Source: Mobula birostris
Taxonomy: Eukaryota
Reading direction: 5' to 3'
NCBI RefSeq assembly: GCF_030028105.1
Contig: NC_092390.1
Span: 49,210,777-49,274,776, forward strand
DNA length: 64,000 nucleotides
Shown: piece after piece, positions 2,140 through 60,498 of the stretch
How the letters are laid out: each line of letters begins with the position of its first letter
Numbering within the stretch: the stretch's first letter is position 1
Translations under genes and position numbers: made by a program
Notes under the pieces: generated by a model
Databases searched by the model: none
Told to the model about the DNA's origin: nothing
What the model saw: only the letters and a program-made list of their open reading frames with translations

Positions 2140-3365
2140 CATAGTCATAGTCATACTTTATTGATCCAGGGGGAAATTGGTTTTCGTTACAGTTGCACCA
2201 TAAATAGTTAAATAGTAATATGTATGTTATGCCAGGAAATAAGTCCAGGACCAGCCTATTGGCTCAGGGTGTCTGACCCTCCAAGGGAGGAGTTGTAAAG
2301 TTTGATGGCCACAGGCAGGAATGACTTCCTATGACGCTCTGTGTTGCATCTCGGTGGAATGAGTCTCTGGCTGAATGTACTCCTGTGCCCACCCAGTACA
2401 CTATGTAGTGGATGGGAGACATTGTCCAAGATGGCATGCAACTTGGACAGCATCCTCTTTTCAGATACCACCGTCAGAAAGTCCAGTTCCATCCCCACAA
2501 CATCACTGACCTTGCGAATGAGTTTGTTGATTCTGTTGGTGTCTGCTGCCCTCAGCCTGCTGCCCCAGTACACAACAGTAAACATGATCGCACTGGCCAC
2601 CACAGACTCGTAGAACATCCTCAGCATTGTCCGGCAGATGTTGATGTTAAAGGACCTCAGTCTCCTCAGGAAATAGAGATGGCTCTGACACATCTTGTAG
2701 ACAGCCTCAGTGTTCTTTGACCAGTCCAGTTTATTGTCAATTCGTATCCCCAGGTATTTGTAATCCTCCACCATGTCCACACTGACCCCCTGGATGGAAA
2801 CAGGGGTCACCGGTACCTTAGCTCTCCTCAGGTCTACCACCAGCTCCTTAGTCTTTTTCACATTAAGCTGCAGATAATTCTGCTCACGCCATGTGACAAA
2901 GTTTCCTTCCGTAGCCCTGTACTCAGCCTCATCTCCCTTGCTGATGCATCCAACTATGGCAGAGTCATCCGAAAACTTCTGAAGATGACAAGACTCTGTG
3001 CAGTAGTTGAAGTCTGAGGTGTAAATGGTGAAGAGAAGGGGAGACAAGACAGTCCCCTGTGGAGCCCCAGTGCTGCTGATCACTCTGTCGGACACACAGT
3101 GTTGCAAGCACACGTACTGTGGTCTGCCAGTCAGGTAATCAAGAATCCATGACACCAGGGAAGCATCCACCTGCATCGCTGTCAGCTTCTCCCCCAGCAC
3201 AGCAGGGCGGATGGTGTTGAATGCACTGGAGAAGTCAAAAAACATGACCCTCACAGTGCTCGCTGGCTTGTCCAGGTGGGTGTAGACACGGTTCAGCAGG
3301 TAGATGATGGCATCCTCAACTCCTAGTCGGGGCTGGTAAGCGAACTGGAGGGGATCTAAGTGTGT
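2140..3365 (-). mobile_element. 5'-truncated Rex1/Babar-type non-LTR retrotransposon (RT ORF 2256-3254)
   Basis: FFDFSSAFNTI, GAPQGTVLSPLLF, KFSDDSA, YKYLG motifs; 3' tandem (CTATGA)n tail at 2140-2156. Confidence 0.9.
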
Positions 3366-4361
3366 AGATACATAATGTACACACAGAACTCAATTATTTA
3401 CTTGCCTCTGCTGTATTTTTCAAAAAAGTATCGAACTGTTGCAACTCTCCATTCAAAAACAAACTATTTACTAAATTCCTATTGACACTTTTATCATGAA
3501 AACATTTATATGATTAGATCCATCTTAATGACTAGAATTAGATATTTCAGTGTTTAACCATTCAGCGTGCAGGGTGCGGATAGGTCTCTACCAAAGGAGG
3601 TAGAGACCTATCCCTCTCCTTCCCTCTACTAGCCTGCAGGTCACCCTTGGGCAAGATGTAGCACCTGCTTAGCACTTTCTTTCCCAAAATGATTTTAAAT
3701 ATCTGGGAGAATTCAGAGGTTCATTATCAGTCACAACCAGTGCTGGAGAAATGCCAATAATCCTGTGGAACCCTGTTCTCATGACCCGGATCTGGGCCGT
3801 ACCCTCCAAATATCCGGACCTGCCTCTCGGTTTTTTTGCACTACCTTACTTTCCATTTTTCTATTTTCTATTCATGAATTATAATTTAATTTTTTAGTAT
3901 TTACTAATTTTTACTATTTTTAATGTTTAATATTTGTAATCCAGGGAGTGGGAAGCGCAGAATCAAATATCGCTGTGATGATTGTACGTTCTAGTGTCAA
4001 TTGTTTGGCGACAATAAAGTTTAAAGTATTAAGTATAAGTAAAGAGAGTCAGGAAGGAATGTGAAGAACTAACTACAGAAATAAAACAGGTTACGTAGTC
4101 TGTGGAGGGGGAATCAGTTGGCATGTTAGATTGTGATAAAAGATCATTGGCATGAAGTGCTAATTCTGTTTCTCACTCCACAGCTATTGCCTGACCTGCT
4201 GTATACTGTTTTTATTTCAGAATTTTTATCATCTGCTGGTTTAAAAAAAAATTTAGGTGATTTGAGAGGACGAGATATGAGAGTGAGCAAGTTTTTCTTT
4301 TCAACTAGACGTTCCCTATTCTGCATGTGTTTCGGACTCCTAGAATTTCCTTTCCTTTTTA

Positions 4362-4982
4362 CGAGGGGTTATTGATAGGTTTGTGGCCTAAGGTTGAAGG
4401 AGTCAATTTTAGAAAACCTAGCACATTTATTTTTCCTACATTTACACGCTTAGTCCAGCGGTCATGGAGCATACGGATCCCTTCTTTGTAGAAGTCGGTG
4501 TCTTGGACCTCCAGAAGTGGTCCACAGCAGGGATGATTGATAAGTTCATGGCTTAAGGTAGAAGGATATGAGTTATTAACTTCAAACTTTCTGCATTTTC
4601 ACTCAAGGAGTTGAACTGCACGTGCATGTAATGAGAGCTGTATAACATCTCCTTCTACCGTAGACCACGAATTTCTTAATCACCCCTGCTGTGGACCACC
4701 TGGAGGTTCAAGACGCTCTCGTTAGATGCACGTGCAATTCAACTCTTTGAGTGATAATGCAGAAAGTTTGAAGTTAATAACTCATCTCCTTCTACCTTTG
4801 GCTACGAACTTATCAATCACCCCTGCTGTGGACCACCTCTACAAGGAAGGAATCCGTATGCTCAACGACCGCTGGACTAAGTGTGTACACGTAGGAGGGG
4901 ACTATGTTGAAAAATAAATGTGCTAGGTTTTCTAAAATTGACTCCTTCTACCTTCGGCTACGGACTTATCAATCACCCCTCG
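4362..4982. mobile_element. mariner-derived fold-back MITE
   Basis: TA|cgagggg...cccctcg|TA; long TIRs; mariner transposase C-terminus YKEGIRMLNDRWTKCVHVGGDYVEK*. Confidence 0.88.
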
Positions 4983-5665
4983 TAAAAGAAATTGAAATTA
5001 TGTTTACAAAAGTCAATCTAAGTAAAGGAAGCTTCATTATTTTATACCTTGTGATATAAATTGCATTCTTCAGCTTAACAAAGGGCATGCATGGAATACA
5101 GATCTGTGAATTTTTGACCTATCTTACTCTTATCAGAATCCATTTTGCATATCGATCGCTCCACAGCTTTTCAGTAACCTTTGAAAGTTTATTTTTAAAC
5201 TTTTAAGGTAACTTAAAAATCTATTGTGGTGTCGGGAGGTGGAGGGAGAAGAGAAAGAAGAATTGAGAACAGAATAACCCCAAAAATAGCAGAATAACAT
5301 GGTAAAAGTAACAAATATTAATATAGCTAAAATGGCCAACAATAAAACCTAAAGATTGTATTGATAAATGAAAAGGATATTGTTAAGGAGACCCATAGGA
5401 GATTTATTTGGGTTTGAGTTTTGCAAGAATTTGAATTGGAACAGCAAGTTAGCTCATGGTATAATAAGGCTGTTGATTGTACATCTAACATCACTGTCAA
5501 AATCACAGAAACCCAGGACTATCGCAGAACATGCTGAATTACAGTCTTCATTACAGCACTATGATTTTAATCACTGATCTGTTTTTAAAATAAAATGATG
5601 GAGCTAATTGAATTAGGAGAGCTTTCTACAGATACCTTTTATTTCCAAGCTAACCATCACGTATA

Positions 5666-6043: not shown

Positions 6044-29828
<23,785 letters not shown>

Positions 29829-30242: not shown

Positions 30243-33200
30243 CTGGAACAAAAAGCAAATAATTAGAAGTGGAAATCACAAACTGATGCACCAAAACAAA
30301 TTCATGGTTTCAACTGTAATGGGTGCACATTCATTTCAAATTGAAACTTGGGCATACCACTGCTGTCATTACTGACCAAGCTTGAATACAAGTGGTCTCA
30401 ACTACCAATGAACAAGTGGAAAAAAGGAAAAACATACCTCATAAAAGAACTCGTCTTCTGCATTTGCAAACAATAAATCTTCTTTCTGCTTGCCCCTTTG
30501 ATGTGACTTTTTCTTTCCTGCTTCCACACAGGCCTTGCTGATCACAAGGTAATAATGGCACTTGCCACAAGGTTTGTTAGTCCTCTGTGCATCCAACAAT
30601 TCCACTCTAAATGTTTAAAAACAAGTAATAATCAAAAATCAAGGAACATATTTCCATTAAGAGTGCATTACTTACAAATGAGGTCATTCTTTTCATAAAT
30701 TGCTAAACAAAAGTAGGTCACTCAAGATCTGTTAAGCTTCACTACCAGTAGGGAACAACTTTTGGACTCAAGTAAGAGTGTAGCAGAGGAGTTTTTCCCC
30801 TCGTACGAATGTCTGCATTGAAAATATTCATTACCCTACTGTTTTAATGCAAGGAAACACTGAACACTGTGATATAAAGCACCACTTCCTTTCTACCAAA
30901 TAAGCTCAACATTAGTTGTAAACGTTGGAAACACTCAGCATGTCAAACAGCAGCTCTGGAAAGGGCGGGAACTAGATCATTCCATTAAAAGTAGCATCAT
31001 GTGAGAATACCTGCTCCACTACTATTCACTTTCATGTGCATGATGATAAACCTGATTTTGATGTGTCTCTATTGTGAACAGAGTGGGAAGGAGGCAGGGA
31101 GAACAGAATCTTGGTCAGGAAATGGGGAAGGGAGAGAGAAGCACCAGAGACATTTTAAATTATCAACAAACCAATTGTGTGGAATCAAATGACCTTGCCT
31201 AGTGTCTCAGAGCTGGCTGTGGCAGTAGCTGTGCCATCAACCCCGCCCAGGCACTCCTTCACTGCCACCCGTCGCATACCCTACCCAATATTTTTTCTCC
31301 CACCAGATTTACAAACACTGTCCACTTGACATTGACAAAGACTTATTTACCTAGCGTGCCTATGTACACAGGACCTTTGCACAGTACTATACCTCAACAA
31401 ATACCATGTCCAAATGCTTCAGATGCTAAATCCAAAGAGTAGATTTAAAGATCTAATGGGCATCTCCCTCATCTTGCATTTTTGTTTATGGAATACATGA
31501 ACTAGCAAGTACAATTAACACAGTATGCTGTGAACAGCAGAATGCTTTAAAAACGAATCAGTACTTTGTTTCTTTTCATGATAGAGAACTCATTTAACAA
31601 GTGTTTTTAATCACTATACCAGTTTATACAGCCAAATTAGAAACAATTTTTCCTTCACCAATTGTTCACTAACAAGTCTTTTATTACAATATAATTGCTC
31701 AGTACGTGGTCCTTACTGGAGCTGTTTGTGCAGGGGTAGTGCAATCTGAGGAGGCACATTAACGAAGCGCTCACTGATGAGAAAGCTGACAGCCTTGCTG
31801 TTGTCATTTAGTATTTTTTCCAGCTGCTCAGATGCAGTCGGATAATGGGTCTTGCACTGGCTCAGAACCAAATCTTTTATCTGTTCTATAGATTCAGTTC
31901 CCTAAATCAGAGAGAAAAACATCAGATAACAAAATTGATCATTAAAATGAAAAACACATAGAAAATGTAGCAAAATGGTGCACAATTTTGAGAAATGCAA
32001 AATTATTCATGTTGTCATTGAAAATGTTACAGAAGCTAGAGCTACTAGGTGGCATCAAATGTTTATCATGGAATTAATACCAACTCATTTTTACAGCTAT
32101 GGGGAACCACAGACATTTGTTGCAATTTTCTATTCGTGTTATGACCTCAAATACAGCTAATAGGCCATATTCTCAGTTCTCTAGATCTGGGAGACCAGCA
32201 TTTCAGTCCTAGGTAACTGCAGGGATGAACAGCGAGGCCTGCAAATGGCCAGGACCTTGAACAACATAATCAGGCGATAGCACGTCCTGACCATGAAACA
32301 CTTCTGGAAACCTTTACCTGGAAAACCTAAAGGCCTGGACCAGGATCTGCTATCTGTCAAGGATTTTCATTGTTGCTGAATAACTTCAACACTTCACAAG
32401 ATCATAAGACAAAGGAGCAGAAGTGGGCCATTCCGCCCATTGAGTTTGTTCCGCCACTCCACCATGAGCCAAACTATTCTCCCATCTAGTTCCAATTTCC
32501 AGCTTTTTCCCCCCATATCCCTTGGTTAATGAATAATCAAAATAAGTCTTGCTTTATTTAAAATTAACTTTATAGAGAATTTATGATTCAATATTAAGCA
32601 TTTAACCAAAATTTGTGAACATGCTGAACTTGGCCAAATGCATTTTATTAGTATCTCCTTGCAATATCTAAAGGTTTCTTTAATGTCATCACGAACAAGT
32701 GTACTGTCAATTAACTAGGCCAGTATGGGCAGCTTTAAAATAGACCACATTAACCAACCCCCAGCCCCCTTCTGCAAAAAAAAATGTACTAAAGCTAGAA
32801 AAACAACAATAGAAAATGCTTGGGGGGGGGGGGAAGAATTGGTAAATTAAGCAGCATCTGTAGCAAGAGAGACTGTAGCATCAAATACATTGGAGTACAG
32901 TTAATTGGGCCATCAGTTAATCAAGGCAGGTGCTTATTTAGGACAATTATTAAAGAACAAAATCTGATTGAGACAATAGCCGGGATTCCCATCATTGTTT
33001 TGGGACACTCTGCCACTTAATTGGGGATAGGAGTCAGCTGTCAAACAGTTCCTAACTACCATCAGTTGTGTGACCATTAGACACTACATAGCGCTTAGAG
33101 CAGTTTTTAAATAGCGCCAGTTGCTTGTGCTTATGTTATCCATTTGGGCCAATGGATGCTGAATCAAAGACTAGTACCAGCAGTACAGTTTGTCACTGAT

Positions 33201-36200
33201 AGTTGGCATGAAACAAGCAGTGATTCCTGTGGTAAGCAGAAAGTGGGGGGGAGGGGGGAAGAGAGATCTGTTTGGTGGTGAGATCCAGTTACAGGAGGCG
33301 AAAGTTTCGGAGAATTTTGTGCTGGATGCGGAGGGTGGTAGGTGAGGACAAGAGGAGCCCTATCCCTGGTAGGGTGGCGGGAGGATGGGGTAAGAGCAGA
33401 TGCGCATGAAACGTAAGAGATGTAGTTGAGGGCAGCATGGATGGTGGAGGAAGGGAAGCCCCTTTCTTTGAAAAAGGGCATCTCCTTTGTTCTAGAATGA
33501 AAATCCTCATTCTGAGAGCAGATGTGGCAGAGGTGCAGAAATTGAGAGAAGGGGATGGCGTTTTTACAAGTAAAAGGGTGAGACGAGGTACAGTCCAGGC
33601 AGCTATGAGAATCCGTGGGTTTATAATAGACATCAGTGGATAAGCTGTCTCCGGAAATAGAGACAGCGAGATCCAGAAAGGGAGGGAGGTGTTCGAAATG
33701 GACCAGGTAAATTTCAGGGCAGAGTGGAAGCTGGAGGCAAAGTGGATGAAGTCGATGAGTTCAGTATGGGTGCAGGAAGCAGCGCTAATGCATTCATTGA
33801 TGTCGCATAGGAAAAGTGCGGGACTGTCACCAGTGTAGGCATGGAACATAGACTGTTCCACGTAACTGACAAACAGGCAGGCACAGCTAGGAAACATGGG
33901 AGTGCCCATGGCTACCCCTTTTTGCTCCAGTCTTGTCACAGGGTTTTGGCTCAAAACATTCACTGTCCTCTTTTCCATAGATCTGCCTGGCTTGCTGAGT
34001 TCCTCCAGCAGTTTGTGCATGTTGCACAGTTTTATAGTATTGTGATAGTATTTGTCGTGTTCTAATTTGTTCTGCATTTCATTTAAATACTTTTTTTTAA
34101 GCAATTTGTCCCTTTTTTATATCATTTTAACTACGTCCATGAAACTTCAACTAACTGTGGTAGCTGCTCAATTGTGCTAAAATGTACTGGTCCTTATGTG
34201 TCCCAATTAACCAGAATCAACTATATTTCTGTTTCCACAAATATAGCCTAACATGCCAAGTAATACTAACATTTTCTATAATTTTACATTTCCAACATCT
34301 TCAGACTTTATTTTCACCCATTTGCTGCTCTCAGATCTCAACTCCCAGCTAGTTCATGTTGTCACATTGTTATAGCACCATGCAGCATTCATTATAATAC
34401 AATTTCCTTTGAAGCATACAAATATTGATCCAAAAATATTCTGTATTACCAAAATTATTTGACGCTCAACTGGCTTTCAAAAACCCATGTTCACTACCCC
34501 AGTGGTCCCCAACCACCGGGCCGCAAAGCATGTGCTACCAGGCCGCGAGGAAACAATATGATTTGGCGATATGAGTCAGCTGCACCTTTCCTCATTCCCT
34601 GTCACCCACTGTTGAACTTGAACATAGGATTGCCAATTGTCCCGTATTAGCCAGGACATCCCGTATATTGGGCTAAATTGGTTTGCCCCATACGGGACCA
34701 CCCTTATCTTGTATTTCCCCCGCTAAGGTAGAGCGTTCCTATGAAGCCATTCGTAAGCCAAAATGGCGTAAAGCGAAGAAGCAATTACTATTAATTTATA
34801 ATGGGAAACATTCTTGAGTGTTCCCAGACCCAAAAAATAACCTACCAGATCATACCAATTAACACATAAAACCTAAAATAACACTAGCATATAGTAAAAG
34901 CAGGAATGATATAAATACACAGCCTGTATAAAATAGAAATAATGTATGTACCGTGTAGTTTCACTTAACAGAATCGGGAAGATTAAGCCAAAACCAATTT
35001 CTAGAAAAAAAATCGGCACATACACGCATGCGCACACAGGTGCCCGCGCAAGGCTTCATGGTCATGGTAGTCTTTCTCAGGGTAAACACAAGTGTCCCGT
35101 ATTTGACTGCTACTTTTGTCCCTTATTTGGGATTGAGAAAGTTTGCAACCCTACTTGAACACCACCCATCACCCCCTCCCCACCCCGTCGGCCGGCCCGC
35201 AAGAATATTGTCAATATTAAACCAGTCCGCGGTGCAAAAAAGGTTGGGGGCCCCTGCACTACCCTGACTAGTCTATCAGTAGTTTCATTGCAAGTAATAT
35301 ACATAACAAATGTATTCATAAAAACCCAAACAGCTGTTGGCTTAGAATTGGTTATTAAAAAATGTTTTTAAAAAAATTACCACCCAACACACATAAAAGT
35401 TGCTGGTGAACACAGCAGGCCAGGCAGCATCTCTGGGAAGAGGTACAGTCGTCCTGACGAAGGGTCTCAGCCCGAAACATCGACTGTACCTCTTCCTAGA
35501 GATGCTGTCTGGCCTGCTGTGTTCATCAGCAACTTTTACGTGTGTTGCTTGAAATTCCAGCATCTGCAGATTTCCTGGTGTTTGCGCGAATAAGTACCAC
35601 CCTCCGTTTCTGATCATTCCTGTTCATAATATTCAGAAAATTGAGCATTTTTTGCATTCTTAGTAGTACTTCCCAAAACAATCACCCTAGTTAACATGGA
35701 AAATTTTGCGAAGAACTTAACAGAAACCCAGTATTCCATGAACTTAAAACCTGATATTCCCTCAAATGCAAAATGATTAAAGTTCCTCAGCAGGACATTG
35801 AATGCAGAACAACTAAGCAGTTAATGCAGAGTTCCAATTACTCCAATTGCATGAAATTAAACATGATTTTTACATCCAAATGAAATGTGACCATTCCCAG
35901 AGACAATACAACATTCTGGTCTGAGCAATTAATACATAGGTCTGCATACCTTCCTTTCAGTCAGATTTAAAACAGTGATAAATCCAAAAACACCATCTTC
36001 ATCATCTTCTTCACTACTTTCATCCGAGATTTCAGCTTGCTTAAAACAAAAATTCATGTTTCAAAAACCAAAATCAAGGCTTTTAACTACGAAATAGGTT
36101 GAATTGCAGTGTACCATTTACAGGTTAATAATTAGCAAATATGTCGGTAATCAAGGAGTTAAGATTTTACAACAGTTTTATAATCTGAGCTGCAACTACA

Positions 36201-37520
36201 CTTGAACTGTAATAAAGGATGTCACAAAAGCAAGTTGATGTCAAGCATGCAATATTAAAAAGGCATAATTTCTGAACATTTACTCCTGAACCGTAAAGAA
36301 TTGGTTATTTGTCAACCTATTCAAGCAAGGAAATCAAATAGAATACATTAACTTTCGTCATTTGTTATTTCAGAAGCAGAATCAGGTTTAATATCAGTGG
36401 CATACGTTGTGAAGTTTGTCTTTGCGGCAGGACAATACAATATATAATGATAGAGAAAAAACTGAATTACATAGTTAAAGTGACAAAATTGAAAAGAAAT
36501 TTTAAAAAAGTGTGGTGCTCATAAGTTCATAAACACCACCTAAATTCTGCTGAGACATTATAAATAACTTGCTTTCAAATGATAATTACTGTGGTTGATG
36601 CCATCTTACCCGAATAACACTTCCAATGTGATTTTGTTGTATAATCAAATCAGCTAGCTCAGTGATGTTGACACTGGCCTTGAGAAATAACTGTAAGTAA
36701 CAAAAACAATAGTTGTAAGCATACTTGTACCAACCCACACAGACTTTTATTTCAAAATTGTTTTACAATTTACAAGTTACCTGCTGTAACAATCTCTTGA
36801 TTCCATCGCAATCTAAGTCAGATATGGTGTGTGCTTCAAAATCTACTTGCACTTCCTGCCAAACAGAAATATAGATCAGATTAACATGTGAAATTTGTTG
36901 CACTTGTACAAGACAGAAAACAATAAAAATTAAATAGTGCAAAAAAAGGTCGGGTGAGCTAGTGTCCCTGGACCGTAACTGTGACCACCACGACAGCGAA
37001 AGAACGGGCACTTGGCCGCCAGATGCCCCAGGTCGGGGAGCGGGGCTGAGCATGGACAACAAAAATTAGATATCTGATTAAAAATTACAGTCTCGAAACA
37101 GGGAGTATATGCCCCGTGGCTGATTAACCCAGAACCCGGGGAGGGGGAAATCCGTCAGAATAAGAGAGCGGTCTGGTCCCCATTCTAGCACTTGGCCCCT
37201 TCCCCAGACGGCACTTTTCTTTTCAGCCCCAGTTCACACCCACGCCGGGTACTGGTATGACCGCCCCTCTCCTTACCCCGACCCCTTGCGCTGCCGCCTG
37301 CCCGGCTCCCCATCCTCCTGCAACTTCTCCCCCGTTCCTGTCCACGTGGTTCCGGCTTCACCAGGCCGCCGAGTCCGACCCGCGGCTTCTGTCAGCGCCT
37401 CACCTCGTGCAGTTCTTCTTCCGAGTCCTCGCCGCTTTCGTCGGAGCCTTGGCCCGACTCGGACTCGGACTCGCTGCCCGCCGCCTCCCGCAACGCGCGG
37501 CGCTTCGCCACCGACGCCAT
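30072..37520 (-). CDS. BCCIP: BRCA2 and CDKN1A-interacting protein (beta-type C-terminus), 7 exons, 295 aa
   Basis: Minus-strand exons 37404-37520, 36781-36855, 36610-36690, 35950-36039, 31717-31901, 30438-30606, 30072-30242 (888 nt). Peptides MASVAKRRA, EVQVDFEAHTISD, LIIQQNHIGSVI, VFGFITVLNLTERK, ISERFVNVPPQIALP, RTNKPCGKCHYYL, FANAEDEFFYE, DDVPMKPLR..KEYLSV*. Confidence 0.96.
30438..30606 (-). CDS. BCCIP: BCCIP exon 6
   Basis: 169 nt, VELLDAQRTNKPCGKC...FFYE. Confidence 0.92.
31717..31901 (-). CDS. BCCIP: BCCIP exon 5
   Basis: 185 nt, GTESIEQ...PLHKQL. Confidence 0.92.
33230..34025 (-). mobile_element. Penelope-like element RT fragment with inverted pLTR end
   Basis: GVAMGTPMFPSCACLFVSYVEQ, HSALKFTWSISNTSLPF, FFKERGFP..., RAPLVLTYHP are PLE RT motifs. 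Confidence 0.85.
34500..35256. mobile_element. hAT MITE (Charlie-like) with 8-bp TSD cactaccc, containing a nested hAT (34625-35153, TSD cttgaaca)
   Basis: Outer TIR cagtggtccccaacc / ggttgggggcccctg; inner TIR taggattgccaa / tttgcaacccta; both TSDs perfect. Confidence 0.88.
35386..35591 (+). mobile_element. fold-back Penelope-derived insertion with minimal hammerhead ribozyme (core 35451-35485)
   Basis: About 65-bp inverted arms around gtc-CTGACGA-agggtctcagccc-GAAAC-ATC-gac; TSD-like aa(t/g)taccaccc. Confidence 0.75.
35451..35485 (+). ncRNA. minimal type-I hammerhead ribozyme motif (PLE-type)
   Basis: CUGACGA core, stem II GGG/CCC, GAAA, NUH=AUC, stem I GUC/GAC; activity untested. Confidence 0.6.
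35950..36039 (-). CDS. BCCIP: BCCIP exon 4
   Basis: 90 nt, QAEISD...LTERK. Confidence 0.92.
36610..36690 (-). CDS. BCCIP: BCCIP exon 3
   Basis: 81 nt, LFLKASV...GSVIR. Confidence 0.92.
36781..36855 (-). CDS. BCCIP: BCCIP exon 2
   Basis: 75 nt, EVQVDFEA...LLQQ. Confidence 0.92.
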
Positions 37521-44400: not shown

Positions 44401-47400
44401 ACTAAGTCGATGAAAATGCGTTAGATCCTTTACTGAGGAATCAGCAAATATGAACTATCTTGTAACGATAAAACTAATGAAACTAAGACTAGCAATATAA
44501 TGAGATTAACAGTCCAAGCATATTCAAATGTATTTAAGCCAAGCATTCTTAAAATATTTAAATGGTAAATGAAATGGTCAACAAAAGAGCGTCATTCCTA
44601 GCTGCCTCTAACTCTAACCTGACTAAAAACTGAGCTAAGGTCAAAGCATAAATACATAACTATACTCTCCACTTCTATCACGCCTGACCCACGTGACAAA
44701 TTAGCCATAATAAATGCACAACGCCAAATACAATACAGACAAACATAAAATAGATATCAGGCTCCTGCACACCCATCTGTAAATATCTTCTTGGATACTT
44801 CAGCATCTATTTTTGATTTCCACTCTTTGAAGCACCTTAGAACGATTAAAAGGGTTATATTAATGAAAGCTGGTTTTGGTGTGAAACTCTGGCTTAAGTT
44901 TTTTTTGAAGTTCATCCCTGTGAGTATTGAGTTAAATTTGCACGTGACCATGTACAAACAATGGATATGTTACAATTTGTTTGGGAAATACAATCAGTCA
45001 TTCCCCCTCCAACTTTCAAATCTTTTACTCACTCTTCCTTCAGTTAGTCCTGACGAAGGGTCTCAGCCTGAATCGTCTAGAGATGCTGCTTGGCCTGCTG
45101 CGTTCACCAGCAACTTTGATGTGTGTTGCTTGAATTTCCAGCATCTGCAGAATTCCTGTTGTTTACAGTCATTTCAGGATGTTGCTTTAAAATTCCACTG
45201 AAAACAATTCTTCACTGAACTTACTTCTTTTGTCATTTATGTTGATTTTAATAATGCTCATTGTTATGCACTTTGTTGGAGCTGTATGGTGCTTAAATAC
45301 TCATCATCCATAGATAACTGGGAACGTCGGAAAGGGTTAGCAAATAAAAGCTCATTGGACGTTTAAGCTCAAATCATTTGGACATCAATATTTGAGTATT
45401 TACAATATGTGGTAAAATAAGAAGTAAGCATAAATGAATATTTTTGTGTTTAGCGACAGAATCGTGATAAATGCTTAAAAAATAAAATGTACAGATATTT
45501 ACAGTATTTGTTTTAGCATATGAAGGTAGTTTTCCTCAAAAACTAGTGTATGTCACTGGTCTTTGAGACAATAGCTGGTTTATAAATTCTGGGTAAATGT
45601 TATGCAGAATTATTGCATCCAAGCAAGATATTAGTCTTGGAATAACTAATAAGATGGAGTTGAGATTTACTACAGAAAATAATGTCAATTAAGTGCAATA
45701 TTTGATTTAACAAAAAGTTATTCTGAAAGGTTTGCATAATACTTGGTTCACATAAAATTCACATTAGAATACTTATAGTCATGTTGCAATAGGTACTTCC
45801 TGCACTGTTAAGAAATTAATTATGCAATTACTCATTTTCATTCTCCTTTGCATGTAGCTTGCACACCCTGAAGCTTATGGTGGGCTGATATTTCCCAGCC
45901 CCAGAGCAGTGGATGCTGTGAAGTTATGTTTGGCAGAAAAAGAGATTAGCGAAGGTGAGTGAATTTTTAAACTCTTATAACACATTTAATTACGAAGCAT
46001 TATCTTTTCCCTGGAGATAAAATGAGTACTATTATAAAAATGAATAAAATTTAATTTCTTGTATTTTAATTACACTAATTACATATTATATATTTTTCTC
46101 AAGTTCTTTATCTTGGTTTAATCCATCATAATATGGAAATTGTATAAATTTTCATCACAGAATCCATCCATCCTGTGTGACAATTCCAAATTCTGAGCTT
46201 TTAAATCTCCTCTTATTCTTTGTTAAAGAGACCAACTCTTGCTTTATCAGTCCCTTCACATAAGTGAAGCACTTCATCCATTTAACCATTCTTGTAAATC
46301 TCATCTGTGTGCTTTTTAATGCCTTACCATTAATAATTGTTTACTCAGCTATAAATATTACTGACTAGTTTGATTTGCTTTTGAATCAGGAATATAAGTT
46401 AGTCAAGAATATCTGGCACATTTAAGACCTTTTTAATTTCTGAAAATCAAAGGCAAAGTAAACTTATTTATTATCAAAGTACGTATATGTTACCATATAG
46501 AACCCTGAGATTTATCTTCTTGCAGGCATGTAGGAAAATAAAGAAATGATAAATAAATTTACTTTGACTTTGATTTTTATAATTTATGAAAAATAAAATA
46601 AAACTAAAGGCATCCGTTAGTCTTGCGATACCGTGGATCTGCGCCTGGAAAGTCTTCACTCTCCAGGGCGCAGGCCTGGGCAAGGTTGTATGGAAGACCA
46701 GCAGTTGCCCATGCTGCAAGTCTCCCCTCTCCACGACACCAATGTTGTCCCAGGGAAGGGCATTAGGACCTATACAGCTTGGCACCAGTGTCGTCGCAGA
46801 GCAATGTGTGATTAAGTGCCTTGCTCAAGGACACAACACGTTCCCTCAGCTGGGGCTCGAACTCACAACCTTCAGATCGCTAGTCGAATGCCTTAACCAC
46901 TTGGCCACGTGCCCACAATTTATGAAAAACTATATATAAACAATCAATGTGCAAAAGAAGACAAATTGTGCAAATACTAAACAAGTAACTCTGAGAACAC
47001 GAGTCATTGACAGTAAGCCTGGAGGTTGTCGAATCAGTTCATTGTTAAGGTGAGTGAAGTTATCCACACTGGTTCAGGAGCTTGAAAATATAGGGCATTT
47101 TCTCTGAATTATTGAACATACTGTCCCAGAACTTCATCGACTAAAACGTTACATTAAATAGCACTATCAGGGAGGGTGCAGGGTTTGTGCAACCTTAATC
47201 ACAAGACTCGTTCTGTCAATCACTGGGTTCATGTCATCATGCTGATGTTCAAAGAGCATTTACTTCATGGAGGAGAAGAGAGGGATTGAGAAGTCCTTCT
47301 GAGGATGAGTGTAAAGGTTTGAGGGCTTGAAGTGAAGGAACAGTTCAAGAAGACACAGACGTGGGCTGGTGTGCTGCTGGAGCATGAACCCCTTTGGCAG

Positions 47401-50400
47401 TGCAGTGTTGGGGAGGAGAGGAAGCAAAATAAACATCAAAAAAAATTCTCAAAAGGGATTTGTGGGACAGAAGATTAATGCATAACCAAATCTGTGAAAA
47501 GGAGACACCTCTTTTTCCCTTATTAGGGAGAGAGAGAGAGCCTGTGGTATGTCAAATACCGGGTGAACGAGTAGTCCTTGGGGTACTGCAAGTCAGTGTC
47601 TTTGTTGTTGCTTTGCTGCACGCTTGAGTGCTCGGTGGTGGGTGCCGATGCTTTTTTTTTTGCTAGTGGGGAGAGGGGACATCATTGCTTGCTGCTGCTT
47701 ACACGCGGGAGGGAGGGGAGCTGGGGGGGCTACTTTGGGGTTCTAACATTTAACTGTCATCCATTCTTTGGGGGCACTCCTCTGTTTTTGGTGGATGTTT
47801 GTGAAGGAAAAGCACTTCAGTATACATTTCTCTGACATTAAAGGTACCTTTGAAACCTTTGAAATCTCAGCTCTTTAGTTCTTCTCACCAAGGAACCCCT
47901 GCTATTTGCAGGCCTCAAATGTATAAATAAATTTTGGTGAGCTGATGTTAGAGCATACAGTCTATACTGCAAGGCTTCACTAAGCTCCCAGGTGCTTATA
48001 TAGCTGTGACATGCCTGTAGATGACACAAACAAATATACGACCCATGCAACATTGTGTTGAATTTGGTGATCAGGTTTGAAACCAATTTGTTTGTTGTAC
48101 ATAAAGGTATTTCACTTAGGGTAAGAATTTCTATCCCAATATATTCTGCAGGGATTGATCAGATAATTTCCATAGCGCAGAGTTTACATTTAAAAAAGAC
48201 ATTATAATAATCATATTGTGATTGAAAGTTAGGAAAAACAATTGATTATATCATCACGTTAAGAAAATTATAACTTTGAACTAAAAATCTAAATGCAGTT
48301 AATCAAATTTCCTTATTTTTTAACAGCATGGTACAATCATTCTTTAAGAGAACAGTGGAATGAAAAATCTAACTATGTTGTTGGAAAATCTACAGCAAAT
48401 TTGGGTAAGAAAAGTTAGTTTCATGTACATTACAGATATATTTCCCCCAAACATTACTTTACACATAAGGTAAATTAATTGTCTTACTGAAACACTATTG
48501 GATGAAGGAATAAAGCTGGAATTGATATTCCCAACTATTCAGAGTGCTCTGTGAATTTAGAAGTGTTCCAACCATTTTGATGTTTTGCAGGGTAAGGATC
48601 AGAGGCCTGGGGGTGAGGTGTTGGGACAAGTAAGTTGACACTGGAACTGAATTGGAAAATAGAGGAGACACTGCAGCAGGCAGGGGCCAAAAGCTGTTCT
48701 AGTATGACTAGTAGTAAGTTTCTGGAAGGAGTATTATGAGCATTTGGGTGGCAGGGTGGAGGTACCTCTCTACCAAAGGAGGTAAAAGGTGCTTCTTCTC
48801 TCCGCAAGCCTGCAGGTCACCCTTGGGCAAGGTGTAGCACCTGCTTAGCCCCCCCCCCACCCCAATTAAGGTCACATGAAGCGATGGGAACAGGTGGTGG
48901 TTGGTCGTATGAGCTGGTGAATATCACAAGCCCTGGTTATGTGACCACTGACGCTCTGAAACTTTTGATAATGGCTGGGCCACCCATCTAGTAAAGACTC
49001 TGCCCAGAAGAATGCAATGGCAAACTATTGGAAAGACCATGATCGCCCACATCATATGACATGGCACACAATGATTATGAGAGCTACCTGGAGAAGGAAC
49101 ATCAAATAATGAATGCTGCAGACGACCTACAGTTTCATTTTGAGCATTGCCAGGTTTTGGCAGGGAACAATCATGGCTGAGAGAGAAGAACACAATAATT
49201 TTTGTACCATGTACAAAATTTGATCCACGTACAAACAACTGAAACAGGAAACTGATAATTTTTACATCCGAACTGATTGGGTGATATGAAAATGCTGAGA
49301 GATTATTAGCACCCAGGATATACATAGATGTGCAAAAAGACTATCAGCAGTTTTCTTAAGCCAATTACACAGCTGTTGGAAATTTGACTTGAAAAGACTA
49401 TATCTGTTGTCATGTGGTAGAACTCAGTAGGTTGAGGGGTTCTGGAATAGCCATGGAAAACAGTAATAGTTGTGAATTTATTCATTTTGGGATCTGTTCA
49501 TACATTTGCACTAAAGAGGACTAGATTATCTTGTGTTGCATGAATGAGCAATGGTTTTGGACTCTAATTACTTACTCTAGGGACAGGATGATGCGTTCTT
49601 CATTGTCCTAGCACAAAAGTTCAGAAAGAGGGAATTATTTGAATCCATAACTTCACCCCTTCTGATCAGTCTACAAGGTAGTTTGATAGCATCAATGGAG
49701 AGAAAAACAGAGTTGTGGTTCTGATCAGTGACCCTTCATCAGTAAGGAAAATTAAGAAAACAAGTGTGTTTTAAATTACTAAGAGTGTAGCAACAAATAT
49801 CTGTAATAGTGTGGAGTCCAAGGTTGTCCATGTGGGACAGTTGGCTTTGGTACTATTGGAGAGAGGAATGAACACTCGGTAATTAAGGCTCATTTGCCTG
49901 GAGGAATATAAATGTAGGGAGGTGAATGAGCAAAGTCTTTTGAGCTATCCAGTCTATAAAAAAAATTCCTGGCTTTTGCACAAGTATTCTTCAGTACCTT
50001 CAGATTTATTAATATGTATTTTCCCCTCTTGTTATAAGTAAAGGAAATTGGTCTTGCAACACAAGGAGAAGAAACTGGAAATGCAGAAAACCTAGCTAAG
50101 TTCATCTGTAGCAGTAAGTTCATGTTATAACTTTTTAAGCATTTCATATGTAGGTCATTTTAATGGGCAGTCATTTATAAATAAAAGTAACATTTTCTAA
50201 ATAAAATACTGATTTCACATAAAATTGATTTATTTAAGATGAGAAAGTAACTAAATCTGGGACATTTCTCAACACCTTTTTGTGAGATCTTTATGGCAAT
50301 TATGGTACTGGATTAGTTAATAGCAAGCGTGAATAGGAAGTTGAAAATGGTAACAATATTTGTACTGTACTGTAGGTAGAGATAATTAATTATATCAGAC

Positions 50401-53400: not shown

Positions 53401-56400
53401 GTGTCAGGAAGTGTATGGTCATGCACTCTGGCAGAAGAAATAAAAGGGGTAGACTATTTTCTCGTGCAGGATTCCCTAAAGGTTAAATTTCAGGTTGAGG
53501 AAGGCAAATGGGACATTAGGATTCATTTTGAGGGGACTGGAAAATAAAAGCAAGGATGTAAGGTAGAGGCTTTAAAGCACTACTGAGGCCTCATTTGGAG
53601 TATTGTGAGCAGTTCTATCCCCTTATCTAAGAAAGGAGGTGCTATCATTGAAGAAGGTTGAAAGGAGGTTCACTAAAATGATTCTGGGAATCAAAGGCTT
53701 GTCACTTGAGGAGTGTTTGATGGCTCTGGGCCTTTACTCACTGGAATTCAGAAGAATGAGGGATGACCTCATTGAAAGCCATTGAGTAGTGAAAGGCCTT
53801 GATAGAGTGGATATGGAGAGGATGTTTCCTATGGTGGGGGAGTCTAAGACCAGAGAACACAGCCTCAAAAAAGTGGGATATCATTTTGTGACAGAGATGA
53901 GGAGGAATTTCTTTAGCTAGAGAATGGTGAATCTGCGGAATTCATTGCCACAGGCGGCTGTGGAGGCCACATCACTGGGTATAGTTAAGGCAGAGATTGA
54001 TAGATTCTTGATTAGTCTAGGCATGAAAGGATATGGGAGGAAGGAAATTGGGGCTGAGAGGGAAAATGGATCAGCCATGATAAAATGGCAGAGCAGACTT
54101 GATGGGCCAAATGGCCTAATTTGTCTCTTATATTGTATGGCCTTATGGTACTTAATAAGATGACCACTGAGTGTACAAGTACTTGCTAAGAAAATCAATC
54201 ACATTTGATGTTTGGTTTTAATCAATACTTAAAGGAAATAAATTAAGTTTGTTAATTTTTTATGGAAACCAGTTTACACAAGGCTGTGATAAAACAGTTT
54301 TTTCACTGTGGTATTTATATTGGCTTAAAGCTTTCTGATGTCTGCACTGATTTCAGATGTGCCTTTGGAGAGCATCACTGTCTATCGGACATCTCAACAT
54401 CCTTCCCTCCAGCAGGCTTTGAGTGATTATTTTTCGCAACAGGTATGTGATTCAGAGTATAGTGCAATACCTGCCTATTTAGGCTAAATGAAATACAGAT
54501 TAGCTTTATTTGCCTGCTCTGAATCTTTGTATCGCTAACTGCCCACAATACATCAAACTTCTTGACCTTAACACTCCAGTTGAAACCTCACTCCCTCTCA
54601 ATGCACTGCTCTCCACTCTCTCCGCACTAATCCCAACTTCACCATCAAACCCGCATATAAGGGGGGGTGCTGTCGTAGTCTGGCAGATTGACCTTTACCT
54701 TGCTGAGGGCAGATGGCAACTCCTCTTACTTACCCCTTCAACAGGACCCCATTATCAGATTGTCATCTGCACCATCACTAATCTTATCGACTCTGAGGAT
54801 CTCCCACCTATTGCCCCCAACCTCATAATTCCCTTACCCTGCACCTCCCCTTTCTACCTCCTACCCAAGATCCACTGGTTGGGTGTGTTGTCCAGAAAGA
54901 AGCAGAGAGTTTTACGGCCGTCCTTATTGGAGATAGTAGTGTATAGGGTCTGGACATCCACAGTGAAAATGAGATGATCGGGTCTAGGGAACTTAAGGTC
55001 ACTGAAGAGATCGAGAGCATGTGAATTGTGATGGATGTAGGTAGGAATTGACCAAAGGGGTTAAAATAGAGTCGAGGTTTGCAGACGGGAGTTCTGTAGG
55101 GCGGGAGCAGGCAGAAACAATTGGTCTACCTGGATGGACAGGCTCAGTACCAATATGCACCAAGACATCTGGTTGCTCCCCCTCCCCCTCCAAAATGCTG
55201 TGGACGCCATCTGAGACCTCCCTGACCCTGGCACCTGGGAGGCAACATACCATCCAGGTTTCCCGTTCACATCCACAGAATCTCCTATCTGTTCCTCTGA
55301 CAATTGTGTCCCCTATCACTATCGCTCGTCTTTTCTCCCCCTTTCCCTTCTGCACCACAGACCCTTGCTCAGTGCCAGTAACCTGGTCTCAGTGGCATTC
55401 CCCTGGGAGGTCATCCCCCACAACAGTATCCAAAATGGTATATTTATTATTGAGGGAAATAGCCGCACGGGTGCTCTGCGCTAACTGCCTATTCACCGTC
55501 CCATTCCTTCTGACGGTCACTCAGCTACCCGTCTCCTGCAACCTCGGGGTGTCTACTTCTCTGTAACTCTGATCGATGATATCCTCACTCTCCCATACAA
55601 GTCAAAGGTCATCCAGCTGCTGCTCCAGATCCCTAACACAGTCTTCAAGGAGCTGCAGCTGGATACATTTCACACAGATGTACTTCCCTGGAAGACCCAG
55701 GGTCTCCCAGGACTCCAGCATCTGACATGAAGAACACACAATGGCCATTTAAACTGCACTAAGTATCTCTGACACAGTAAGAAAAAAGGGAAACTTAACA
55801 GAAACTTAGCAAGGCAACTTACCCAGAGCTGACGCTTCTTCCGAGTCGAAACCTCCTTTGAGCCAAAGCCTGACACTCCCACTCTCACCGCTGGCCCATG
55901 TCGACTGTTTATTCACATCCATAGATGCTGCCTGACCTGCTGAGCAGAATGACTATGTGCAGCAGGTCCGGTCCAGTTAGACCTGACCCATCTTCTTAAC
56001 ATTCACAGTTCGGAACTTTAAAAACTTTTTTCTCTTTTCTCCCAGGGAATTCCAGCAAGCATTACCTTTTTTAGTCCTTCTGGTGTCAGGTTTTCTTTGA
56101 AGACCATTCAAAAATTGGCTGGAGATTCCATTAACCAAATCGAGGTAAACAAGAGGAATTCTGCAGATGCTGGAAATTCAAGCAACACACATCAAAGTTG
56201 CTGGTGAACGCAGCAGGCCAGGCAGCATCTCTAGGAAGAGGCACAGTCGACGTTTCAGAGATGCTGCCTGGCCTGCTGCGTTCACCAGCAACTTCGATGT
56301 GTGTTGCGTTAATCAAATCAAGGTACTGTATTTGTGAAGTGCTTTTCATGTTGTAACCTGACAGATCTTAAAATCCATTTAACAAAAGCTGGTAGGTTTA

Positions 56401-57240
56401 TTTTTTCTGAATGGAGGAGACCAAGAAGAAACCTATTATAAAATTATGAGAGGGCTAGATGGAACAAGCAAAGATCTATTTTCCTTAGCAGAGGAATCAA
56501 AGCTGGCTGTGGGGCATGGATTTAAAGTAAACCACACAAAAATTAGAAGGGAAGAAACCCATAGGGTGGTGATGACCTGGAACTCACAGTCTGAAAGTGT
56601 GGGAGAGACTGAAACCTTTCGGGTTGAGACCCTCCACCAGGACTGGAAAGAAAGGAGAGAAGCAGTATAAAATGTTGGGAAGAAAGGGTGGAGCAAAGGC
56701 TGGAAGATGACTGGTGAATCCAGGTGAGGGGGTAAACTACCTGGAGGGGAAAAGAGAGGGTGGGAGTGATGCAAGAAGCTGCGGGTGATAGGTGTAAGTG
56801 ACAAGGAGATGGAATTTAATAGATGACAGTGCCATCTTCTTCAGCCTGAAACAAAATTGTTTAGGTACCTCTGAGATTCAGACCTGCTTGGGTTGTTCAT
56901 GTTTCCAGTAGTGTGTCCATTCTTATGAGCTTTGTGGCTTACAAGTTTCTCAGTGTACCAGGACCAAGAGCTGAGAAATGGGATTAGTGCAACTAGCTCA
57001 GTTTGTCCAACATGGACAGTGAGATGACAGGCATCATGTGTTGTACAGAGTTCTTGTAGAGATACATTTCATCTATGTTAGGTACGACTTTGGTCATTTT
57101 GTTATGGTTTTGCTTTTCAGTTTGCAGCGATAGGGTCAACAACAGCTGAAGCCATGGCATCAGAGGGACTGACTGTGAGCTGTACAGCTGAAAAACCTAC
57201 ACCACAAGATCTGGCAGCGTGTGTAAGAAGAGTGCTGTAG
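41343..57240 (+). CDS. UROS: uroporphyrinogen-III synthase, 9 coding exons, 261 aa
   Basis: Exons 41343-41405, 41642-41725, 45858-45954, 48327-48404, 50039-50113, 51661-51744, 54357-54442, 56046-56144, 57121-57240 (786 nt). Peptides [89 protein letters not shown]. Confidence 0.96.
41642..41725 (+). CDS. UROS: UROS exon
   Basis: 84 nt, [19 protein letters not shown]... Confidence 0.93.
45003..45165 (+). mobile_element. Penelope pLTR fragment with broken hammerhead; TSD cagtcatt
   Basis: gtcCTGACGAagggtctcagcctGAATcgt, then the same arm as 35500-35580. Confidence 0.7.
45858..45954 (+). CDS. UROS: UROS exon
   Basis: 97 nt, [18 protein letters not shown]... Confidence 0.93.
46594..46916 (-). 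mobile_element. tRNA-derived SINE (CORE-like) with 13-bp TSD
   Basis: A-box tggccaagtgg, B-box gagttcgagcc, gtgtccttgagcaaggcactt core; TSD aatttatgaaaaa at 46581 and 46917. Confidence 0.82.
47503..47863 (+). repeat. unclassified interspersed repeat (uninterrupted copy of the 23573 element)
   Basis: Co-linear with 23573-23908 plus 24361-24387; ends in (cctttgaaa)2. Confidence 0.7.
48327..48404 (+). CDS. UROS: UROS exon
   Basis: 78 nt, [25 protein letters not shown]. Confidence 0.92.
50039..50113 (+). CDS. UROS: UROS exon
   Basis: 75 nt, [24 protein letters not shown]. Confidence 0.92.
50430..50969 (-). mobile_element. Tc1-like non-autonomous element
   Basis: TA|cacccagtggccactt...aagtggccactgagtg|TA; transposase HTH remnant [28 protein letters not shown]. 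Confidence 0.87.
51291..51370. mobile_element. 80-bp hAT MITE
   Basis: TIR cagggg(g)ttcccaa / ttgggaacccctg; TSD gtctagag / gtctggag. Confidence 0.78.
51661..51744 (+). CDS. UROS: UROS exon
   Basis: 84 nt, [22 protein letters not shown]; NAGNAG acceptor. Confidence 0.9.
52215..54140 (+). mobile_element. two tandem decayed CR1 3' halves
   Basis: [26 protein letters not shown]; two CR1 3' UTRs ending at about 53155 and 54140. Confidence 0.85.
54357..54442 (+). CDS. UROS: UROS exon
   Basis: 86 nt, [15 protein letters not shown]...SQQ. Confidence 0.93.
54540..55945. mobile_element. rearranged Penelope fragment (+, then inverted) with inserted CR1 ORF1 piece (about 55145-55890, -)
   Basis: [13 protein letters not shown] and [11 protein letters not shown] (PLE RT); [20 protein letters not shown]...CCLPGARV...VHIGT (CR1 ORF1 SGNH esterase). 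Confidence 0.75.
56046..56144 (+). CDS. UROS: UROS exon
   Basis: 99 nt, [13 protein letters not shown]...NQIE. Confidence 0.92.
56148..56308. mobile_element. fold-back Penelope-derived insertion at a UROS splice donor
   Basis: About 51-bp inverted repeat; 17-bp TSD-like ttaa(c/t)caaatc(g/a)aggta at 56131 and 56309. Confidence 0.8.
57121..57240 (+). CDS. UROS: UROS last coding exon
   Basis: 120 nt, [12 protein letters not shown]...RRVL*. Confidence 0.93.
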
Positions 57241-57411: not shown

Positions 57412-57627
57412 ACAAGAGAAAATCTGCAGACATTGGAAATCAAAGTAATACACTCAAACTGCTGGAGGAATTCAGCAGGCCAAGCAGCATTCTTGGAAAA
57501 GAGGAAACAGTTGATGTTTTGGGCTGAAACCCTTCATCAGAACTTGGTCCAAAACGTCGACTGTATACTCTTTTCTATAGACGCTGACTGGCCTGCCGTG
57601 TTCCTCTAGAATTTTGTGTGTATTACT
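57412..57627. mobile_element. fold-back Penelope-derived insertion with degenerate hammerhead (- strand)
   Basis: Perfect 12-bp TSD gtcatctcttaa (57400, 57628); - strand agtt-CTGATGA-agggtttcagccc-AAAAC-ATC-aact. Confidence 0.75.
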
Positions 57628-60321: not shown

Positions 60322-60498
60322 ATAGGAAAAAGACTGCAGGTGCTGGAAATCCAAAGCATGGCACACAAAATGCTGGAGGAACTCAGCAGGTCAGGCAACA
60401 TCTGTGGAAAAAAGTTGACGTTTTGGGCTGAGACCTTGACTGTTTACTCTTTTCCATAGATTTGGCTTGACCTGCTGAATTCCTCCAGCATTTTATGT
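60322..60498. mobile_element. fold-back Penelope-derived insertion
   Basis: Perfect 11-bp TSD attgtgcacaa (60311, 60499); inverted arms tgctggaggaactcagcaggtca / tgacctgctgaattcctccagca. Confidence 0.75.

Follow-up and report, generated by a model that had tools for sequence, protein, structure and literature searches.

Short fold-back insertions in Mobula birostris and a probable two-primer origin from a Penelope-like retrotransposon

Penelope-Like Elements and Their Known Insertion Forms

Insertions of Penelope-like elements (PLEs) are described in PMC8557442, PMC3846280 and PMC8969392 as carrying an inverted 5'-truncated copy, a one-sided tail of 30–40 bp and a target-site duplication (TSD) of 8–10 bp. 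The origin of their head-to-head inverted pseudo-LTRs (pLTRs) and the role of the hammerhead ribozyme in PLEs are called unresolved in PMC3846280 and PMC8557442. According to PMC4209133, the minimal PLE hammerhead lacks loop 3, has an extra base after A9 and a G10.1-C11.1 pair, and is palindromic at 15.1-16.1; truncated PLEs are reported there as dispersed single minimal hammerheads and as opposite-strand pairs 100–700 bp apart. For the anole, Anolis carolinensis, PMC11167929 reports a PLE protein that nicks and extends both target strands. The reverse transcriptase (RT) of this element, Poseidon, starts at two internal RNA sites bounding the tail, the protein is a predicted dimer, and hammerhead cleavage was not needed in vitro. 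In the main text of that paper, the two start sites are not linked to inverted pLTRs, and the word "inverted" is used once, for a blocking nucleotide.

Here, a stretch of 64,000 nucleotides from Mobula birostris (hereafter the window; contig NC_092390.1) was analysed, in which short fold-back inserts probably represent the shortest insertion products of an endonuclease-bearing (EN+) PLE, each made of two target-primed cDNAs joined head-to-head. There is nothing unusual about this PLE as an element: it represents, in a ray, a known order of retrotransposons and has the inverted-pLTR form already known for that order. Like the EN+ PLEs Penelope of D. virilis, Adineta Pen2 and Naiad (PMC8557442, PMC3846280), the ray copies have an inverted 5'-truncated copy on the 5' side, a tail of 30–40 bp at one end, a short TSD of variable length, a pLTR hammerhead and heavy 5' truncation. 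They differ in that both copies are usually shorter than 140 nt, so that the whole insert is a hairpin of 160–220 bp, and in that their inner ends cluster at the hammerhead. Poseidon (PMC11167929) shares with the ray PLE a pLTR hammerhead and two discrete 3' ends bounding the tail, but belongs to a different PLE clade; a Zn-finger-like linker motif is a feature of the ray relatives. Non-LTR retrozymes (PMC7229834; bioRxiv 10.64898/2026.07.22.740005) are likewise short, non-coding, related to pLTRs and equipped with a type I hammerhead, but their units, each bearing a hammerhead, follow one another head-to-tail in tandem and give rise to circular RNA, whereas the window inserts are single head-to-head structures with broken cores. 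A retrozyme reading was rejected, all window copies being single or head-to-head, with no head-to-tail tandem. The supplements of the bioRxiv study include a chondrichthyan retrozyme set that may overlap the ray PLE family. Neither this family nor a twin-priming model for PLE inverted pLTRs was evident in the full-text literature searched, which largely excludes subscription journals.

Genomic Setting and Identity of the Repeated Unit

Two convergent genes occupy much of the first part of the window. DHX32 lies on the + strand (ten exon matches to the Hypanus sabinus protein, 5999–29825, with 72–98% identity, alignment overhang included), and BCCIP on the - strand (30405–37520), where five exon pieces were recognized at 30.4–37.1 kb among the 73 ORFs scanned, one of the five reaching the curated cut-off. 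A GC-rich stretch is found at about 37.1–37.6 kb, at the probable start of BCCIP. Other repeats comprise two long non-LTR RT reading frames matching Pfam RVT_1 (2256–3389, - strand, 377 aa; 14174–15892, + strand, 572 aa) and, at 4357–4987, nested long inverted repeats of 79 and 126 nt that are about 90% complementary and unrelated to the pLTR. PLE-derived loci amount to 12 in the 64-kb window. A second PLE RT remnant occupies 54510–55145, with its last 270 bp inverted in place, and the adjoining stretch bears what we take to be a resemblance to the CR1 ORF1 esterase.

In hammerhead-sense order, the repeated unit consists of a hammerhead, an arm of about 67 nt and a tail of about 35 nt (35–37 nt). 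It is connected to PLE coding regions in two places. Within copy G (17190–17464, - strand), a GIY-YIG C-terminus (17.33–17.46 kb; tblastn E 7e-14 to the ray protein P0004) stands directly upstream of the hammerhead, a partly deleted arm and the tail; P0004 itself matches the Pfam GIY-YIG family with E 5e-4, below the curated cut-off. In copy F (33170–34030, - strand), the arm of the fold-backs is found inverted (about 33925–34030) at the 5' end of a 5'-truncated and frameshifted RT/thumb remnant, which is 71–76% identical to eight Hypanus/Mobula proteins; more distant full-length relatives carry both RT and GIY-YIG (85 matches among 135 candidates). Because the unit follows the GIY-YIG end in G and the same arm occurs on the RT remnant in F, it is identified on sequence grounds as the 3' pLTR of an EN+ PLE of a myliobatiform ray, the GIY-YIG end and the RT being separate remnants in a window without a complete PLE ORF. 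A first-pass annotation of this DNA had already proposed a PLE origin from RT and GIY-YIG remnants in the window, in agreement with the RT at 33.2–34.0 kb and the GIY-YIG at 17.3 kb. Copy F ends before the region of the Zn-finger-like linker motif, Cx4Cx2C, which is present in P0004, a close ray relative, and in L004, one of the related loci considered below. The motif of the close relatives may point to a Neptune/Nematis type for the ray PLE, with clades as defined in PMC8557442.

A phmmer search with the translated A element returned four matches, two Mobula predicted proteins containing the sense unit and two repetitive unrelated proteins. The open frame that runs through copy A gave no match when proteins were searched by words, and an exact DNA-pattern scan for the arm in the genome-contig collection gave none either (0 matches). 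Two Mobula predicted proteins, P0086 and P0087, include translated pLTR, with a match that ends approximately at the near 3' end (+67), and are probably gene-model captures of the repeat.

Inventory of Insertions and Flanking Duplications

Four fold-backs of 160–220 bp and one single-arm copy had been listed in the first-pass annotation, with flanking direct repeats of 11, 17, 12, 11 and 8 bp (copies A, C, D, E and B, respectively). All five inserts were found at the positions given below, and all five repeats were recovered. Copy A lies, like copy F, inside a BCCIP intron, and its hammerhead is antisense to the BCCIP transcript. It is composed of a left TSD (35375–35385, 11 bp, one mismatch to the right copy), a tail-less inverted pLTR arm (35386–35451, - strand) that spans about +65 to -1 from the hammerhead cleavage site, the minimal type-I hammerhead (35451–35484, + strand), the sense pLTR arm (35482–35546, + strand), a PLE tail of about 36 nt ending at +102 (35547–35583, + strand), eight extra bases after the tail (35584–35591) and the right TSD (35592–35602). 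Copy B (45003–45165, + strand) is a 5'-truncated PLE 3' end without inverted arm, made of a 3'UTR piece, a damaged hammerhead, arm and tail, within an exact 8-bp TSD (44995–45002 and 45166–45173). The three other fold-backs are on the - strand: C (56148–56308), with a sense unit at 56148–56256 and an inverted arm at 56257–56308 inside a 17-bp TSD with two mismatches; D (57412–57627), with an inverted arm at 57543–57627 and an exact TSD of 12 bp; and E (60322–60498), with an inverted arm at 60438–60498 and an exact TSD of 11 bp. D and E represent a diverged subfamily. Copy F constitutes a fifth inverted-arm insertion, on a PLE RT remnant, and was absent from the first-pass annotation, as were further pLTR fragments. 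These include copy H (56608–56860, - strand), which is a piece of PLE 3'UTR rich in pyrimidines and contains a degenerate hammerhead. Remains of pLTR-like sequence, either older or fragmentary, were seen at 1966–2033, 30932–30965, 49688–49744 and 55900–55944.

Searched with a profile of the unit, the window gave 21 matches with E up to 1, and its reversed sequence gave none. The idea of one arm common to all five copies held in so far as a related arm is present in each, and had to be amended in that the arms fall into two groups, with 85–98% identity among A, B and C and 69–85% between these and D or E; D, E and F are more diverged than the closely related A, B and C. All four fold-backs form hairpins of unusual stability (z of -18.2 for A, -15.1 for C, -7.5 for D and -11.0 for E, none of 200 shuffles being as stable in each case). 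When 1500 pairs of positions were drawn at random, with a slack of ±10 nt, flanking repeats as good as those observed arose 9 (A), 15 (B), 1 (C), 0 (D) and 1 (E) times. No convincing TSD was found around copy F, whose best flanking repeat is a 7-mer and whose 3' end is lost. The AT content of target sites (55–68%) is not clearly richer than that of the window (60%).

Short, non-coding inserts with inverted arms and flanking duplications could also be taken for MITEs or other DNA transposons with terminal inverted repeats. This origin has next to no probability: TSD length varies between 8 and 17 bp, the one-sided tail makes the arms asymmetric, the single-arm copy B has a TSD as well, and a PLE GIY-YIG end adjoins the sequence without a break. 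The variation in TSD length and the connection with a PLE ORF together refute it. The first-pass annotation had likewise argued from the variable length of the TSDs for target-primed insertion rather than cut-and-paste, and TSDs of 8–17 bp next to asymmetric arms bear this out; a DNA transposon with fixed-length TSDs does not describe these inserts.

Ends and Junctions of the Window Copies

Positions were counted from the cleavage site (+1 is 35482 in copy A); the outer arm ends of A and C and the inner ends of D and E were read by eye from the sequence. By alignment, the tail ends at +102 in A, B, C and D and at +95 in E; in all of them, the last 1–2 bases can be common to the TSD. The outer ends of the inverted arms fall at about +62 to +68 in all five insertions and lie 35–40 nt short of the tail end. 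The inner ends, given as sense start and arm end, are -31/-1 in A, -8/+17 in C, -31/-16 in D, about -21/+1 in E, and within the RT gene/about -37 in F. Nine of these ten ends are located between about -37 and +17, a 54-nt zone in or next to the hammerhead; the corresponding P of 7e-4 comes from a crude uniform null over a 150-nt range, with a zone chosen post hoc and short inserts selected. Junctions may have been changed by later deletion, that of C especially. A 15-nt internal deletion in copy B begins exactly at the cleavage site and the sequence resumes at +16, beside a small hairpin; the arm of C ends at +17.

All five junctions differ, none being common to two copies, and a propagating hairpin family is therefore unsupported. 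The comparison of loop junctions proposed in the first-pass annotation thus had the outcome expected of independent fold-backs, from five junctions only. This sample comes from one 64-kb window and at least two subfamilies, allows a within-subfamily comparison for A versus C only, and would miss rare propagating subfamilies. Of the two alternatives put forward at first, a fold-back formed anew at integration is favoured, since five of five junctions differ and the inverted arm also occurs on an RT-bearing copy; independent formation at integration is very likely.

Independent insertions would also result if a stalled first-strand cDNA folded back through hammerhead stem I/II or the cleavage-site palindrome and was extended on itself as template. 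Such snap-back would fit the clustering of nine of the ten inner ends and also explains that the one-sided tail is on the longer copy in all four short fold-backs; two variants are common to both arms of A and are found in neither B nor C, and for inverted PLE junctions that have palindromes, PMC3846280 proposed self-priming. None of the junctions corresponds to clean annealing through hammerhead stem I (A misses by 3 nt). Snap-back alone leaves unexplained why five of five arms stop at one internal position, and in F the end of the long cDNA, which lies within the RT gene, is over 1 kb away from the arm.

The Hammerhead Motif

The loop of copy A quoted in the first-pass annotation is exact to the letter, with C3 at 35454 and C17 at 35481 under the hammerhead numbering rules, and its description as a minimal type-I hammerhead is supported for the ancestral motif. 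It has the minimal PLE form, in that loop 3 is missing, A9 is followed by an additional base and a G10.1-C11.1 pair is present. Both CUGANGA and GAAA are found in copies A and G only, to the exclusion of B, C, D, E, F and H, so that one of the four fold-backs (A) has both core halves: C is without the CUGA half, D reads AAAA for GAAA (G12 mutated) and E is without both. Elsewhere, copy B has a damaged GAAAC besides its 15-nt deletion, and the hammerhead of F is degenerate. In A, G16.2 is replaced by A, giving ACAU, and the ACGU palindrome (15.1-16.1) that would form the dimer stem III is lost; copies C and E, like the related loci, retain it. Folding predicts for A a hammerhead register 7.3 kcal/mol worse than the plain hairpin, with C17 paired at a probability of 0.99, and the hairpin is thus predicted to trap the hammerhead and block the cleavage site. 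Compared with the minimal metazoan PLE hammerheads of PMC4209133, the motif in the window fold-backs is cut or mutated, and that of A lacks the palindrome and is predicted to be hairpin-locked.

The comparison covered 12 distinct motifs, taken both from the window and from related loci. Pairing is complete (100%) in stem II, and U-A/C-G exchanges are seen in stem I; eight double-sided cells were reached in 4 of 500 shuffles, and slid controls were 17–41% paired versus 82%, whereas the count of doubly changed pairs did not exceed that of shuffles (286 of 500). The set being essentially a two-family comparison, the covariation of stems I and II, whose lack would have spoken against the first-pass proposal, is present but weak. 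A hammerhead scan, also suggested at that stage, yielded little: among three matches of Rfam models in the window (E up to 1) there was no hammerhead family, and a covariance model built from the motifs detected no new intact hammerhead in the window. Two of the Rfam models, RUF6-5 and MIR8562, match over the fold-backs with less than the gathering score, as generic hairpins; a miRNA reading was rejected. Most likely, judging from motif integrity and predicted folding, the hammerhead is a part inherited from the parent element, mostly broken and inactive in these copies.

A different possibility is that the inserts belong to one or several non-autonomous hairpin retroelements, transcribed as a fold-back, processed by the hammerhead and re-inserted by PLE proteins. 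Their density (4 short fold-backs per 64 kb), TSDs and intact RT start region with tail are compatible with this, as are the sense start at -31 in both A and D and an inverted arm in A with which stem I could continue beyond a 3-nt bulge. Non-autonomous PLE derivatives are known, namely non-LTR retrozymes (bioRxiv 10.64898/2026.07.22.740005) and Chlamys elements (PMC8557442). Yet no two of the five junctions match, the core is broken in three of the four fold-backs, and A combines the disfavoured hammerhead register and the predicted pairing of C17 with the loss of its stem III palindrome. Moreover, the RT would need to read through a duplex of 50–80 bp, and the two ray proteins matching translated A align to the sense unit only, without the A junction. 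The propagating, ribozyme-processed hairpin element envisaged in the first-pass annotation is thus very improbable.

Related Loci in Other Contigs

A profile of 13 PLE proteins was run against a genome-contig collection and revealed seven loci (L001–L007, out of 35 pattern matches) with 43–49% amino-acid identity. All are animal-type PLEs within two MAG records filed as bacterial, and their contigs are probably host DNA. This family has the same kind of terminal hammerhead and two 3' ends, at +65 to +70 and at +119 to +125. Full TSD-bounded insertions were available for two of the seven loci (L002 and L003); L001 is 3'-truncated, L004, L006 and L007 are without an observable 5' junction, and L005 was left out as a likely assembly fold-back artefact, the flanks being part of its 1.5-kb inverted duplication. 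U4 is changed to C (CCGA for CUGA) in the hammerheads of L001, L002 (849–889), L003, L004 and L006, and CUGA is kept in the inverted copy of L002 and in L007.

In L002, a 154-nt inverted arm with tail, ending at -31, is joined to a 320-nt tail-less copy, and the junction filler (604–630) is made of repeated stem II fragments, like repeated re-priming. In L003, a 30-nt inverted arm of tail sequence only is joined to a 1.36-kb tail-less copy. Since the arms hold sequence that is missing from their partners, their content indicates that they are not copied from the partner cDNA. Snap-back cannot yield either locus, and the stop position of the five window arms matches the near 3' end of sense copies in this related family, which also argues against it. 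The self-primed fold-back that the first-pass annotation had considered is therefore probably not the mechanism; as a general explanation it is unlikely, and for the four window fold-backs themselves it is a possible one. This argument for dual priming uses two loci of a distant family in a bacterial MAG. The long inverted-arm insertions of both families (L003, 2847–2865; window, 33915–33930) are 5'-truncated at the RT motif GxAMGT, in near-palindromic DNA, the two families being only about 47% identical.

A Two-Primer Model of Integration

Granted an independent origin of the fold-backs, dual priming is quite likely. We infer the following integration model from published in vitro results, which were obtained with Poseidon, an element of another clade than the ray PLE. 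GIY-YIG would nick both target strands 8–17 bp apart, giving rise to the TSD, and each 3'-OH would prime cDNA synthesis on element RNA; one of the two cDNAs would begin at the far start site and include the tail, the other at the near site and lack it. Both RTs would usually stall within 50–135 nt, in or near the structured hammerhead, after which the two cDNA 3' ends would be joined head-to-head with 0–2 nt of microhomology and gaps filled. When one cDNA runs further, an inverted arm on a long body would result (copy F); when the second priming fails, a plain truncated copy would be left (B and G). The window copies would then form a continuum from one cDNA (B) through two short cDNAs (A, C, D and E) to one short and one long (F). 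Dual priming would explain several features at once: why there is a TSD, why only one side has a tail, why the outer end of the arm is fixed, why either arm can carry the tail and why the junction varies.

In LINE-1 twin priming, a second cDNA starts from the second target strand, and the resulting 5' inversion lies within a single TSD; the second cDNA is primed at an internal microhomology whose position varies, and there is no overlap between the two parts. In the ray PLE, by contrast, the second site is fixed at about 35 nt from the end, so that the parts overlap and a hairpin is formed.

Two of the five inverted arms (A and E) end within 1–2 nt of the cleavage site, where the deletion in B also starts. 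The junctions might be twin-priming fossils of a PLE dimer whose inner ends also record ribozyme cleavage in vivo, a rather doubtful extension of the two-primer model; a 6-bp palindrome is centred on the cleavage site, and junctions could gather there on its account without any cleavage.

Significance for PLE Biology

Repeat annotators could mistake such hairpin inserts for a MITE or a miRNA hairpin. The value of these insertions is mechanistic: fixed outer ends, a tail on either arm and junctions clustered at the hammerhead suggest a simple two-primer model, which follows from published in vitro results, and the join points may record how PLEs integrate. If the twin-priming fossil reading is true, head-to-head inverted pLTRs would be explained without an antisense template and the minimal hammerhead would be shown to cut in vivo. 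The ray genome would then constitute a natural library of very large size, in which PLE integration is mapped to the base, with about 80 inverted-arm insertions per Mb if the window is typical.
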